Positions 29,300-47,949 of a DNA stretch of 64,000 nucleotides are shown here, piece by piece; within the stretch, counting starts at the first letter, position 1, and every line of letters starts with the position of its first letter. The notes beneath the pieces were generated by a model. The model made no database searches, was not told the DNA's origin, and saw only the letters and a program-made list of their open reading frames with translations. Source of the DNA: Botryllus schlosseri (Eukaryota); NCBI GenBank assembly GCA_051294905.1, contig CM119371.1, positions 36,272,001 through 36,336,000 of the forward strand, read 5' to 3'. A program made the translations under genes and the position numbers.

Positions 29300-30814
29300 C
29301 TTATTATCACGCCTTAGGGCGTCGTGAATTGAGATATTTCTTGTTAAGCGTGCGTTGAAATACCATTCATTTTCAATATTGTTTAGTCTGGCATTTTCAC
29401 ACTACCTCATCGAAACGTCACTAACGGAGCAACGAAATACCTTTTGTTCGAAAAAGTATCGCCTAGCGTGGCTTCAGAATACACGGCTAAGTCAGAATGG
29501 GATAGACTAATATTTACGGAATAATAACCTTACCTTCCGTCTAATTCATATTCGCTCGCAATATGTTTACGATTAGCAGTGTATGAGAAATTACAAAGCA
29601 CACTGTGCTTCTAGAAAAGATAACTCCTCGCTTGTTACAGTTCAAGAATTTAGCGACAAGTAGACACACGAATTTTGAATGTTGAATGTAGTTTTACAGG
29701 CAGATTGCATGTCCTCATTTCTATACCACTCACGTAGACGCGATTTATATCAACACAATTTGCATTAGATTGTGTTGTTTTATATACTCCTGCATATCTC
29801 TTTTCCTCCAAAACCTGCACCTAGTATAACGTGTACTAAGCGTACTAATTACCTAAGCGAATTCAACATGAAACGATGCAATTTATTTGTATGAGGAGCC
29901 AGCCAAGTATGCTAGACGGCCGATGAGAGAAGGCTTGAGCTACATCACGCACGTGACCTGTAATGTGATTGGCAATTGTAGAACCATTGTTCTTAATTCG
30001 ATTAGTCACGTCTCGAGTCGCGAGGATCGTTCGATCCCTCGAGAGTTGGTAACACTTCCTAGCAGTAAATCGAGCTTGTCTAGTGTCTACATATCATCGC
30101 GTAATGGAAACTTCCAATAATGTGGTGGGTGTTGAAATAACAGTCACGTACGATGGTTGCATAAACAATATTAAACGTCAAGAAGTTGACTTTGCTAATC
30201 CAAACTAAACTAGACGGCGGTATCAAGGTATCAATGCTGCGAATTTGTCACCAGAATGATATTTCAGCTGAGGCCTAGCGTTTCATTGACTTATCGTTTC
30301 GCTGTATAGTGCGCGACCTCGAACCATTATGTTCACTGTTCACTGTTCATAGATATAATGAGAGGTGGTGAACCCCCTAAATGTTCTTATTATACGATTG
30401 AATTTCGGTGGGCTCAAAAGGATTCGTTATTGTCTACTCTAAATCCTAAAGAACAATATTTTGGTCTAATGAAACGTGGTTGTTGACTTCATCTTTCGGG
30501 TATATATTGTGTGTGTGGTTACCATATTTTGATACCGGGAAAGGAGTACACTTTAATAAAATCATAAAATTTAGTTCACCGAAATAGAAAACAGATAATT
30601 TTGATATATTTACTGGAAAGCTTGTTGTATTGACTAAAAAAATGAAGTTCATCACGTTGACTCTAATCCCGCCGAGCTAACCACTTTTACCGATATCTCT
30701 AAAGTGTTGAATTAAAAAAAAAAATAATCACTCTGACCGCTCGAACGTAAGCGTTACGTATTTTCCGTCAATTATGTCGATTTTCAGTTGATCCTGTCCA
30801 TTAGCCTAGCTGTC

Positions 30815-31161
30815 AGTAGTATAGGAAATGTGCGGAACTCGCGCATGCACCCTATTTACTTAAACAAACAAAGATTATCAAGATAAAAGATAGTGTAAGA
30901 ATTAGCACATTCTCAGTTTTGCAGCAATACTCGAGGGGATTTCCCTTCTGACTGTGCGGCAATTAAAAAAGGGGGAATAATTAGAGAGAAAACGAACAAA
31001 GAATCTGGATTGACCTTTGTACTCAGACATGAGTACTTCTACTTGTACTTTTCCACTCCTGATTCTACCTCGCCTGACTTCTGGACACGAGACTTGTGTA
31101 TTATTTATTATATTTTCCCACGAATAACAATGGATTGGCTTTTAATTTCAATGGTGTGCAC
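30815..31161 (+). repeat. Polinton left terminal inverted repeat
   Basis: Reverse complement of 46885-47232; one mismatch (31051) in the first 305 bp, then diverging over the last ~40 bp. Confidence 0.95.
30935..30945 (+). promoter_or_regulatory. NF-kB/Rel consensus site in TIR (mirror copy at 47102-47112)
   Basis: GGGGATTTCCC matches GGGRNWYYCC; function untested. Confidence 0.35.
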
Positions 31162-31504
31162 GCCGACGAATCGGTATAGTTCTCCTGTCTTGACGTGTCG
31201 TTCCGCGGTGGGTTGATTAATCCAATTGCGTGTAAACACGATGGGATTTGGGAATATTTGCCCGTCAAACATGACGTCAGTATAGTATTTGTTCCTTCGG
31301 ATCCGTATGTGAGATCCCGGTTCGTGTTTTAGGTAGATGGTCAACGCGTTCGGCCAGACGAAACGATGCAAGGTGACGATTCTGGTCTGCGTCATCGTAG
31401 TTGACCTCTTTTGCTCCCTGGTTAGTAGCGATCTTTATGACGCCAACGACTCCCGAACGCTCGTAAAAGAGTAGAACGTATGCTGTACAAGGTTTATTGA
31501 ACAT
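31108..31504 (-). pseudogene. Terminal Polinton gene of unknown function, apparently split by a 1-nt frameshift
   Basis: Overlapping ORFs 31277-31528 and 31108-31395 fuse if one base of the T run at 31327-31330 is removed, as in the homologous right-arm sequence (CCT AAA CAC at 46757-46765). A polypyrimidine-CAG acceptor precedes the ATG; the stop overlaps an AATAAA inside the TIR. Confidence 0.4.
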
Positions 31505-31534
31505 ACACAATCTGAAAATACAAGTCACGAGCGT

Positions 31535-45048: not shown

Positions 45049-45756
45049 ATGGCATGTAAATACAACCCGTACGAAAATACTGCAACGAAGCGCAAGCTAG
45101 ATATTGACTTGAAACGGGCTGCCCCGTCTCATATTCCAAATTTCGACAATGCCACCAGTTTCTATGGCACGCAAGTCAGCTTCGACGGACGTGTGCAATT
45201 GGCGTCGACCAGACGACATGGACCCAAGATGACTTATGTGAAAGTCTCGATCACAGATGGTAAAAAATCTCTACCAGAGGTGATATTCAATGACAAATTA
45301 CTGGACTGCATCGAAACTGCATACAGACAAGGTCATACTATGACATTCTGTAACATCAAGATCACTGCTGACGCAAGAACTGATGCCCCATCATTGATCA
45401 TTGGTCGCAATTCTACTGTTACCAAGAGCAAAGCCCGCTTACCCTGTCCAGAGATGGTTGAATTCCGGTACGTGTCCGCAGAAGATATCCAAAAAGGCTT
45501 GTATGATGACAAGATTGTTAATTACAGAGGTCTCTGTATTGCCACGGATTCTGAATCCATTGGCACAACCTCGGAGAGACAGCTACATTCATATGCACTA
45601 GTGAATGGTGACATTTCTGTTGATCTGAAAAATTGGGGTATTATACCGTTATTCACTGCTGACAAATACTATGATGTCACCCATCTACGTGTACAAGTCC
45701 GATCTGGCAAACGTGAGCTGTTCTTACAAGACTATTCGCGTATTTGCAAAGAATGA
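45049..45756 (+). CDS. Tandem OB-fold (RPA70 DBD-like) candidate single-stranded DNA-binding protein, 235 aa
   Basis: Two OB-like repeats: VSFDGRV..YVKVSITDG..EVIFND..G.TMTFCNIKI..LIIGRNSTV and VNYRGLC..R..SYALVNG..VDLKNWG..YYDVTHLRVQVRSG..LFLQDYSRI. KRK NLS; TATAAAT at 44995 and AATAAA at 45773. Confidence 0.65.
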   Translation: MACKYNPYENTATKRKLDIDLKRAAPSHIPNFDNATSFYGTQVSFDGRVQLASTRRHGPKMTYVKVSITDGKKSLPEVIFNDKLLDCIETAYRQGHTMTFCNIKITADARTDAPSLIIGRNSTVTKSKARLPCPEMVEFRYVSAEDIQKGLYDDKIVNYRGLCIATDSESIGTTSERQLHSYALVNGDISVDLKNWGIIPLFTADKYYDVTHLRVQVRSGKRELFLQDYSRICKE

Positions 45757-46884
45757 ACTGTTTCATGTATGAAATAAAAGAAACATGTGATTATTTTGTT
45801 GACACTATTTATCAGAGATTAGGGCTGGTTATAGTAAACTTTCTAACCTGCCAGAATACATCATCTTTCAATATCATACTACTAGCTATCGTCTCGACTC
45901 AGTAATCTCACACGAGCGGCGTGGAAAGAGGTTATCAGATTGTAAAACGGCGTGTTTGTGAGAGCACTATACGCCGTGATAATTAAAACAGAGCGAGACA
46001 GTAGCACAGTACATTAACCGGGGGAAAATCAGCGTGATAGTTAATCAATACTCAACTTTCGCTTCCAGTATAGTGGCCAAGCGACGGCCGAGACCAATGT
46101 CCAACGTTTTTCGAACAAAGAGAATAATTCCTCGACCCAGCGGGGGTGGATTACAGGACAAAGGCGCTGTGCATGTCTACGAGGCGACATGGCTGTTTTC
46201 GAAAGCGAAATTGTCGCTCCTCGGCACAGCAGGATCACAAAACAAAAGGCGCTATGCAGTCTACGCGGCCGCATGTCTATTTTCGAAAGCGCGATTGATT
46301 ATCGTAAATTAGATCTTGGACAAAGCGACGATAGCAGCGCGTCGTATAATACCCGAGCTAAGTAGTTATAGTATACTATAAACCTGATCCTCGCGCCGCC
46401 AACGATCCGTAACCACAATTCTAATACCGCGACAGTCCATACACAATTATACACCATACCGAGAGCTTTCAAGGTATCTGTCGACGGGCTTCGAGCGATC
46501 GTCGACACGTGACCCGTGCTCTGTGACCCGTAACAATAGCGAGGGCTTTATTTACATGGGTGTCCTCGAGAACTCGAGTTGACCCGTATATTTATAACCA
46601 TAACAGATCATCTCCCCTGCTACAATCTCGATCAATAACAAGTAGAGTACGTTTCCAGTATGACACAGACCGTAGGCGTCACTATGCACAGACAAACGTA
46701 AGAAACCGGTAATCCACTTTGGCGATACATCTGCTCGGACGCGCGTTGACAATCCACCTAAACACGCGCCGGGATCTCACGTACGGACCCGAAGGAACAA
46801 ATACTATACTGTTGTTGTTCGTAGGGGGAAATATAACAATACTATACTGTTGTTGTTCGGGGGAAATATAAAAAATACTAGTAA

Positions 46885-47232
46885 GTGCATACCATTGAAA
46901 TTAAATGTCAATCCATTGTTGTTCGAGGGGAAAATATAATAAATAATACACAAGTCTCGTGTCCAGAAGTCAGGCGAGGTAGAATCAGGAGTGGAGAAGT
47001 ACAAGTAGAAGTACTCATGTCTGAGTACAAAGGTCAATCCAGATTCTTTGTTCGTTTTCTCTCTAATTATTCCCCCTTTTTTAATTGCCGCACAGTCAGA
47101 AGGGAAATCCCCTCGAGTATTGCTGCAAAACTGAGAATGTGCTAATTCTTACACTATCTTTTATCTTGATAATCTTTGTTTGTTTAAGTAAATAGGGTGC
47201 ATGCGCGAGTTCCGCACATTTCCTATACTACT
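46885..47232 (-). repeat. Polinton right terminal inverted repeat
   Basis: Reverse complement of 30815-31161; ends ACTACT followed by TSD GCTGTC. Confidence 0.95.
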
Positions 47233-47949
47233 GCTGTCTAAGCTGTAGAGGAGGGTGAATTTCCAAAATGGAGGACATTTAAGCGTTCTCGGAAGACATT
47301 TTCGATTTCCTGAAAAATGAGGACATATGGTAATTGTATATATATGTGAATAGGTTCACTCTAATGATGCTTGCTCACTGCCTAGTTATTCATTTTATCA
47401 TACTGCTTAGAGCAGAGGTCTCAAACTCGCGGCCCGCATGCGGCCTGCGAGACCGTTTTGTGCGGCCCGCGAAGGCATTTTGGAATTCTAAGTATTCGAT
47501 AAAAAAAAACATTCAAGTGTCATATATCTTGTTTAGATTTAAGAACTTGAAGTTCACTCCAAAACTACTACAAAAACCTGAAATCTAAACAAACTTCTCT
47601 ATCACATAACTTTTAAAATCTACCGTGCGGTGGAAGATCGCTATTACGTCACATTTCAGGTTCATGATGATAAAATATGACCCATTGATGATTCGTGACT
47701 GGAAATTTTGATTTTGTTTGGTGCGACCTTTCCTCAGTTTACTCGATTTTGGATTGACTGGGTGATAAACTAAAAATGACTCGAGTTGAGTCGGGAAAAA
47801 CGTTAAAATCAGAGAAGGACTTGCGTCATGCAATAGTGACTTGGTAATCCTACGGACGCAAAAATCTATGAAACTGTCAGGGGGAATTGTAATATGTCAA
47901 AAGCCCGTAGCTTGCGTTGCGTAGGGTATATATATATATATATAATCAG

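Follow-up and report, generated by a model that had tools for sequence, protein, structure and literature searches.

The DNA analysed here, called the window, is a stretch of 64,000 nucleotides from the genome of Botryllus schlosseri (GenBank assembly GCA_051294905.1, contig CM119371.1, positions 36,272,001 to 36,336,000 of the forward strand), and positions are counted from its first letter unless a chromosome is named. It carries a Polinton/Maverick element of 16,418 bp that holds both replication and virion genes and is bounded by inverted ends and a short target site duplication (TSD). A sequence-only reading that preceded this analysis had proposed a complete, apparently young endogenous Polinton at this position. 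The element was delimited, its open reading frames (ORFs) were compared with sequence and structure databases, and related copies were retrieved from the 495-Mb assembly that holds the window. Reads were mapped from one DNA run of the source organism (X2), one run each of organisms B (X10) and C (X11) and one single-cell RNA run (X23).

Boundaries and gene content of the element

The following features delimit the element:

30815-47232: element proper, 16,418 bp
30809-30814: left TSD copy, GCTGTC (basis: a single hexamer in paralogous host repeats)
47233-47238: right TSD copy, GCTGTC
30815-31119: left terminal inverted repeat (TIR), starting with AGTAGT (basis: one mismatch to the right end over the first 302 nt)
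46928-47232: right TIR, terminating in ACTACT
46799-46880: subterminal tandem repeat, 38-nt unit, 2.2 copies

The AGTAGT and ACTACT termini directly abut the TSD, which is perfect on both sides, exactly as had been read from the sequence. The claim that the TIRs differ by one mismatch over 305 bp requires a small amendment: in a reverse-complement alignment, the sole mismatch in the first 302 nt lies at position 237, but an indel follows, after which imperfect similarity continues to ~348 nt. A repeat finder reported a TIR of 317 nt (98%) with the TSD included. The G+C content is 0.42-0.50 within the element, compared with 0.38-0.40 beside it.

Both flanks proved to be as rich in repeats as the sequence-only reading had described. 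The left flank (30517-30814) is a host repeat with at least 40 other matching places at 70-85% identity (688 first-look candidates), and the right flank (47408-47750) is another with at least 39 such places at 84-88% identity (3238 candidates). Six other copies of the left-flank repeat were aligned across the insertion site: four run continuously from 30814 to 47239 and contain a single hexamer, one can be aligned with both flanks at a 10-nt offset and one with the left flank only. Because the uninterrupted paralogous copies have a single hexamer, the element was inserted into a pre-existing host repeat, with duplication of six bases. Against six full-length relatives, no indel of 10 bp or more is private to the window copy; thus, nothing is nested inside it, in agreement with the earlier statement that no host repeat is recognisable in its interior. 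Both flanks matched only themselves at 100% when an empty allele was sought on other contigs of the assembly, and no tRNA genes were found in 30000-48000.

It is very unlikely that an exogenous virus genome was misjoined to host DNA by the assembler. Such an error would fit the finding that none of the listed X2 contigs extends 31 nt beyond a junction in both directions (two contigs enter the element by 10 and 17 nt), but it is contradicted by the perfect TSD flanking an insertion that interrupts a host repeat at a single point and by six other full-length copies with TSDs at other sites. Two X2 joints, 30644>47295 and 30815>47297, were considered as empty sites and rejected, given that each occurs in one contig with a shorter side of 20 nt, the coordinates do not fit and the flanks are repetitive.

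Sixteen ORFs free of internal stops, 80-1292 aa long, are present in the element, and 15 lie on the minus strand. Fold or family evidence backs all six hallmark genes, so that the description as a complete Polinton with replication and virion modules was borne out; for the polymerase, the capsid and the penton this evidence is firm. The order is PolB ... ATPase ... integrase, pentons, small basic protein, capsid, protease. The ratio of non-synonymous to synonymous differences per site (pN/pS) given with each gene was obtained from Nei-Gojobori counts over all pairs of seven copies, as simple pairwise values uncorrected for shared ancestry and recombination. Structures were modelled with AlphaFold2 (AF2) and compared using Foldseek.

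40179-44057, minus strand: protein-primed PolB, 1292 aa (pN/pS 0.13)
37605-38246, minus strand: P-loop ATPase, likely of the A32/FtsK-like packaging type, 213 aa, Walker A at 23, Walker B at 89 (pN/pS 0.08)
35753-36754, minus strand: rve integrase, 333 aa, with a weak C-terminal chromodomain (PF00665; pN/pS 0.08)
34756-35559, minus strand: penton, single jelly roll plus insertion domain, 267 aa (AF2 and Foldseek; pN/pS 0.21)
33980-34759, minus strand: penton-like paralogue, 259 aa (BLASTP to the 267-aa penton, E 2e-12; pN/pS 0.21)
33640-34005, minus strand: minimal jelly-roll penton paralogue, 121 aa (BLASTP to the 259-aa paralogue, E 1e-14; pN/pS 0.09)
31978-33252, minus strand: major capsid protein (MCP), double jelly roll, 424 aa (AF2 and Foldseek; pN/pS 0.03)
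31535-31981, minus strand: likely adenain-like cysteine protease, 148 aa (Atlas neighbours; pN/pS 0.10)

For the polymerase, 138 homologues were retrieved from a search of 5.8 billion proteins, the best being an apple-snail protein with 36% identity, and PF03175 was matched in six of the 18 homologues that were aligned (best E 3.4e-11). The expected motifs are arranged along the protein as Exo I (FDYE, at 366), Exo II (489), Exo III (616), Pol A (720), Pol B (1025) and Pol C (DTDS, at 1124). Positions 860-932 of the PolB family profile match the E. coli Vsr structures 1odg, 1vsr and 1cw0 with E values of 4e-4 to 6e-4, and a conserved Cys-His motif of this Vsr-like insert lies at residue 814. 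With respect to an OTU domain, the only sign is a Cys-x-Phe-Arg-Cys motif at residue 200, visible by eye, and the OTU family is absent from the Pfam matches of the 18 homologues and from the PDB profile search.

The integrase is the only one of the window's own proteins that was recognised by Pfam, just under the curated cut-off (PF00665, E 2.2e-7, 31.5 bits compared with 32.6). Residues D61, D121 and E155, located by eye, have a D,D35E-type spacing, and a weak Chromo match (PF00385, E 0.021, 15.1 bits compared with a cut-off of 25.1) covers residues 298-328. PDB sequence searches with PolB, MCP, the ATPase and the protease gave no significant match. In the case of the ATPase, the best such matches were thymidine kinases (E 0.16), and Pfam returned weak generic P-loop matches (E 0.003-0.004); its neighbours in a protein language model (Atlas) scored 0.98, with Pox_A32 in 41-86% of the members of neighbour clusters. 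Pfam searches with the protease were likewise without significant match, and its Atlas neighbours (0.98) belong to clusters in which 27-38% of the members carry PF00770 (Peptidase_C5). Its residues H52, D67, Q95 and C102, assigned by eye, resemble adenain in order and spacing. Language-model neighbours combined with motifs found by eye thus make the assignment of both proteins to these subfamilies likely.

The capsid protein was modelled with a predicted local distance difference test value (pLDDT) of 87.4 and a predicted template modelling score (pTM) of 0.85. Against the PDB, the model retrieved the MCPs of SGIV (iridovirus), PBCV-1 (chlorovirus), Sputnik and mavirus (E 2e-16 to 8e-12); against BFVD, the top match was a bracovirus-borne protein (E 2e-28), and capsid models of MELD-virus and adomavirus were also among the structural matches. 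Its 467 homologues, many of them named 'F54H12.2-like', include two with PF21738, and the best identity is 49% in the search of 5.8 billion proteins. The model of the 267-aa penton (pLDDT 80, pTM 0.72) matched the pentons of mavirus (E 1.9e-7) and Sputnik as well as the penton bases of adenoviruses, with TM-scores of only ~0.4 because the insertion domain is poorly modelled. A word-indexed homologue search with this protein yielded one match only, so that an exhaustive profile search was required, which gave 8210 representative relatives at E<=0.001. The 259- and 121-aa paralogues were tied to the penton by BLASTP only; the smaller one is a bare jelly roll that has no inserted domain.

Family copies, mosaicism and purifying selection

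Full-length matches to the polymerase were found in at least 15 places of the genome (95-100% identity, 13 without stops), and full-length matches to the capsid protein likewise in at least 15 (99-100% identity, all without stops). These genome-wide counts are lower bounds, given that 99 of 294 capsid candidates and 36 of 348 PolB candidates were scored. The core ORFs, described as free of stops from the sequence alone, are open in the window copy and in most of its sister copies. Copy number and divergence had been proposed as a check; with at least 15 near-intact copies, this is not a singular insertion. Six full-length relatives were fetched. The closest, on a different chromosome (C7), is 99.4% identical to the window copy end to end and has its own TSD, TACCTC, whereas identity to the window copy is 95.4-97.1% for the other five. 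Among these five, C2a and C14a are 99.9% identical to each other and lie at different sites. Six of the seven full-length copies have perfect 6-bp TSDs that all differ from one another, and the TSD of the seventh matches at five of six positions.

The identity of 99.4% across 16.4 kb between the window copy (C1) and the C7 copy could also have arisen by segmental or assembly duplication instead of transposition. This explanation was refuted and is considered extremely improbable: the similarity ends exactly at AGTAGT and ACTACT, the flanks are unrelated, the TSDs differ (GCTGTC and TACCTC), and the paralogous empty sites described above confirm a simple insertion.

The claim that the insertion is young is supported. 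It agrees with the perfect TSD, the 99.4% identical sister with a TSD of its own, the absence of nested repeats and the open ORFs, but the near-identity of the TIRs has to be dropped from the argument as an unreliable clock. Divergence between the two TIRs was tried as a measure of age and rejected: C2a and C14a are 99.9% alike, yet the left and right ends are only ~94.5% alike. Because both of these copies, at different sites, have such ends, unlike ends can evidently be transmitted.

The differences between copies are unevenly distributed. The 109 differing columns between the window copy and C7 are clustered, with ~60 in 36413-39742, ~28 in 31074-31464 and none in 33077-35763. From 35277 onwards, the window copy differs from C4a at only two positions in one 750-column stretch and at two more in the next, compared with 15-49 differences per 750 columns over most of the remaining alignment. 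Because segments are near-identical between otherwise distant copies, the lineages must have recombined with or converted one another.

All 15 ORFs held to be real (see below) are intact in six of the seven copies; in the seventh, C8a, the 267-aa penton gene is frameshifted and the polymerase is interrupted by a stop. Coding differences are overwhelmingly synonymous, with pN/pS values of 0.03-0.21 for the core genes. The direction of this signal is unambiguous: the copies diverged while the proteins, virion proteins included, were needed. It argues that the lineage depended on its virion genes until very recently.

An alternative view is that the copies are intact merely through their youth and that the family spreads only within the genome as a transposon, by copy-out and integration, without forming particles or leaving the cell. 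The presence of at least 15 copies in one genome would suit such a mode of life, as would the lack of capsid transcripts in the RNA run mapped, and the mosaicism could reflect gene conversion between chromosomal copies. The low pN/pS values of the capsid, penton, ATPase and protease genes, however, are hard to explain unless propagation required these proteins. The same argument from selection has been published for vertebrate Mavericks, those of cyprinids (PMC8097293). Exclusive spread as a transposon is accordingly regarded as unlikely, though by no means negligible, and a lineage propagated with the help of its virion genes is the preferred reading.

Several further observations concern the wider family. 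Summed word depth of X2 contigs was 365-1657 inside the element (3821 in the bin at the left inverted end), compared with ~9-12 in single-copy flank; this depth exceeds the expectation from ~17-20 assembled family copies, and the measure is not a copy number. Runs X10 and X11, from organisms B and C, contain contigs that match the interior of the element at ~98% (61 differences over 2713 nt, and 40 differences plus three gaps over 2075 nt), as might result from close kinship of the hosts or from transfer. The genome also harbours a second, far more abundant Polinton family, marked by PolB matches at 38-39% and by at least 76 capsid matches whose protein identity is 47-48%, 75 of them free of stops, and a third group with MCP identities of 75-79% and PolB identities of 63-65%.

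Transcripts, accessory genes and palindromic partner elements

The RNA run is a 3'-tag library of which ~3% was read, with a threshold of 97% identity. It yielded 144 matching reads, 37 of them at >=99% identity; nearly all correspond to the minus strand and cover 38.2-39.7 kb. An intron joint, 39433>39489 (skipping 39434-39488), is supported by 16 reads with 11 different starts, and a second joint, 39566>39621 (skipping 39567-39620), by three reads. Both introns, of 55 and 54 nt respectively, have GT-AG borders on the minus strand, and the three exons join by eye into a frame of ~160 codons. In four reads, position 38228 is followed by a long untemplated poly(A) tail, which shows as a run of T on the plus strand. 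Position 38228 lies 18 nt inside the ATPase ORF, such that the upstream transcription unit stops just beyond the start codon of the next gene. The family is thus transcribed, spliced and polyadenylated; the reads speak for the family level, and neither for the window copy in particular nor for silence of the capsid genes.

The remaining genes of the element are:

33245-33643, minus strand: basic protein, 132 aa, between the pentons and the MCP, at the 'PW' position of vertebrate Mavericks (pN/pS 0.04)
36744-37196, minus strand: 150-aa ORF (pN/pS 0.32)
37193-37567, minus strand: 124-aa ORF with hydrophobic C-terminus; weak zf-C2H2_12 match, E 2.5e-4, below cut-off (pN/pS 0.05)
38366-38965, minus strand: 199-aa ORF, within the transcribed stretch (pN/pS 0.37)
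39264-39855, minus strand: spliced gene, ~160 aa, exons 39855-39621, 39566-39489 and 39433-39264 (first exon pN/pS 0.03)
44168-44641, minus strand: 157-aa ORF (pN/pS 0.06)
45049-45756, plus strand: 235-aa ORF, the sole plus-strand gene (pN/pS 0.15)

The searches assigned no family to the six ORFs of 132, 150, 124, 199, 157 and 235 aa or to the spliced gene. These genes are lineage-specific and under purifying selection. The 199-aa ORF contains a 78-nt tandem repeat at 38507-38666. One further ORF, o82, is broken in four of the seven copies; as drawn it is probably not a real ORF, and its first part is probably non-coding. Motifs resembling splice sites are visible by eye between o82 and the 199-aa ORF, yet no joint supporting a cis-intron was present among the read joints listed.

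The virion genes (31535-35559) and the ORFs at 36744-37567, all on the minus strand, are arranged head-to-tail, with stop and start codons overlapping (ATGA or 8-26 nt) and no intergenic DNA. Several other start codons are directly preceded by AG. The overlapping chain and the AG-preceded starts fit polycistronic transcription, possibly resolved by trans-splicing; among the loose ends of RNA reads shown, none bears a spliced leader.

A search with the end sequence of the window element led to five giant-palindrome elements elsewhere in the genome:

C9:1765510-1781578: giant-palindrome element
C4:17287563-17302009: giant-palindrome element with BIR (inhibitor-of-apoptosis) ORFs at L023:4003-5007 (minus strand) and L024:2459-3637 (plus strand)
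C11:26575422-26590060: giant-palindrome element
C11:21072084-21086223: giant-palindrome element
C6:9438985-9453897: giant-palindrome element with BIR ORFs at L029:4935-5300 and L029:5655-6113 (both minus strand)

They are 14-16 kb long, with AGTAGT ends and 6-bp TSDs (four perfect, one matching at five of six positions). The arms total 6.2-7.0 kb, are 99.5-99.95% identical within an element and enclose a spacer of 1-2.8 kb. Only the terminal 240-990 bp are in common with the window element, at 84-97% identity and comprising up to ~1 kb of right-end sequence, and none of the 16 ORFs of the window element has a tblastn match (E<=1e-3) in them; they are not Polintons. Two of the five carry BIR ORFs, once per arm; in the ORFs of 334 and 392 aa, three BIR stretches were matched with E values of 1e-42 to 1e-46. 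A third palindrome has a six-finger C2H2 ORF in its spacer. Compared between different palindromes, the arms are 79-98% alike, and the combination of high arm identity within and low arm identity between elements suggests that the arms may be copied anew at each cycle.

A full-length family copy at C4:12417889-12434284 has a perfect TSD, TACGTA, but the outermost 35-48 nt of its two ends are dissimilar, and its right terminus is of the type found on the C9 palindromic element. This suggests that ends have been exchanged between autonomous and non-autonomous elements.

Because the palindromes have the AGTAGT ends, the right-end sequence and the 6-bp TSD in common with the window element, they could be its satellites. 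In its full form, this proposal takes the window element to be a currently active, particle-forming virus that serves as helper for giant-palindrome satellites, with a triple-BIR inhibitor-of-apoptosis (IAP) cargo and arms that are re-copied each cycle. It is a tentative and rather doubtful proposal. If it were true, arm re-copying would be the trace left in an animal by protein-primed replication with strand displacement (snap-back), and the window element would be a virus of an invertebrate chordate accompanied by satellites that lack replication and capsid genes but carry a cargo directed against cell death. No report of IAP cargo or giant-palindrome derivatives was found among the Polinton papers retrieved, as judged mostly from titles and the openings of abstracts.

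Interpretation and comparison with known systems

With high confidence, the element is interpreted as an integrated Polinton/Maverick (polintovirus, adintovirus-like) that arose by recent integrase-mediated insertion into an old host repeat and belongs to a lineage that, until very recently, replicated with selection acting on all of its genes. This interpretation builds on the observed structure and boundaries, the gene identities, the copy family with its purifying selection and mosaicism, and the spliced transcripts at the family level. The replication mode, particle formation and present-day activity of the window copy can only be inferred. Briefly, a linear genome would be copied by its own protein-primed polymerase from the repeated AGT AGT ends, with slide-back or jump-back initiation as suggested by the end motif only. 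The rve integrase would join the ends to host DNA and thereby generate the 6-bp duplication, and the capsid protein, the three penton-like proteins, the ATPase and the protease would assemble and mature an icosahedral particle.

Some observations weigh against this interpretation. Pfam searches with PolB, the MCP, the protease and the penton paralogues of the window gave no match at E<=0.01 and none that is useful at E<=10, and the protease and the ATPase were placed in their subfamilies through language-model neighbours together with motifs picked out by eye. RNA depth in the single 3'-tag run was zero over 32404-37812 (capsid, penton and integrase genes), and 107 of the 144 RNA reads are only 97-99% alike and possibly derive from other copies. 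No clean empty-site joint and no free linear ends were seen in the DNA runs. Finally, pN/pS describes the past of the lineage, not the present of the window copy.

On its own, the window copy reveals no new principle; its value is that of a well-delimited reference when populations are surveyed and expression or particles are sought. The virions of this ancient virus group have yet to be observed in animals, and Polintons that are intact, under selection and present in several copies offer the best chance of finding them; this genome is unusually rich in this respect, with at least 15 near-intact copies, sister pairs that are 99.4-99.9% alike, recombination between lineages, transcription and palindromic partners with the same ends.

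Intact vertebrate Mavericks, or 'proteoviruses' (Barreat and Katzourakis 2021, PMC8097293), have 5'-(AGT)2//(ACT)2-3' ends and a 6-bp TSD and are described as intronless. The window element agrees with them in the end motif, the 6-bp TSD, TIRs of a few hundred bp, a length of ~16-17 kb and the gene order PolB-ATPase ... integrase-minor capsid-PW-major capsid-protease; purifying selection on all core genes and the presence of several intact copies in a genome are likewise common to both. Unlike the vertebrate elements, it has all genes but one on one strand, a minor capsid gene that occurs in tandem as three diverged paralogues of 267, 259 and 121 aa, short spliceosomal introns in at least one gene and a polymerase with a VSR insert.

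Adintoviruses (Starrett et al. 2021, PMC8502044; Buck et al. 2024 preprint, PMC11071296) have the same set of animal-associated PolB, rve integrase, hexon and penton and, in all likelihood, of adenain and packaging ATPase. Their definition includes a PolB with an OTU-like domain at its N-terminus and an integrase with a C-terminal chromodomain (PMC11071296), whereas the window PolB has no Pfam OTU match and the Chromo match of its integrase is weak (E 0.021). The window element is moreover an integrated multi-copy element, whereas the adintoviruses are free genomes assembled from reads. Duplicate pentons and pentons without a DE-loop insert have been reported among them (PMC11071296). The earlier remark that the accessory gene set does not look standard fits the unnamed, lineage-specific genes; the triplicated penton only varies a known theme.

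A VSR endonuclease insert is known from pPolB2 Polintons of a marine nematode and a mollusc (Jeong et al. 2023, PMC10748475). The window polymerase likewise has a Vsr-like domain inserted, as judged by profile and motif, with a snail protein as its best PolB match; the host belongs to another animal group. Mavirus and other virophages (PDB 6G41-6G45) correspond in capsid and penton fold, rve integrase, protein-primed PolB and, in all likelihood, cysteine protease and FtsK-like ATPase, but sequence-level similarity to them is absent. While virophages rely on giant viruses of protists, there is no hint of such a dependence for the window element.

Intact multi-copy Mavericks under selection with the same ends, TSD and gene order, polymerases with a VSR domain and duplicated pentons have thus all been described before, and this Maverick/adintovirus-like element with a VSR-bearing polymerase is a further member of a known group. 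It stands out by its set of three pentons, by the presence of introns in at least one gene, by the low similarity to database proteins (best identity to anything in the search of 5.8 billion proteins 36% for PolB and 49% for the MCP) and by the rich family context.

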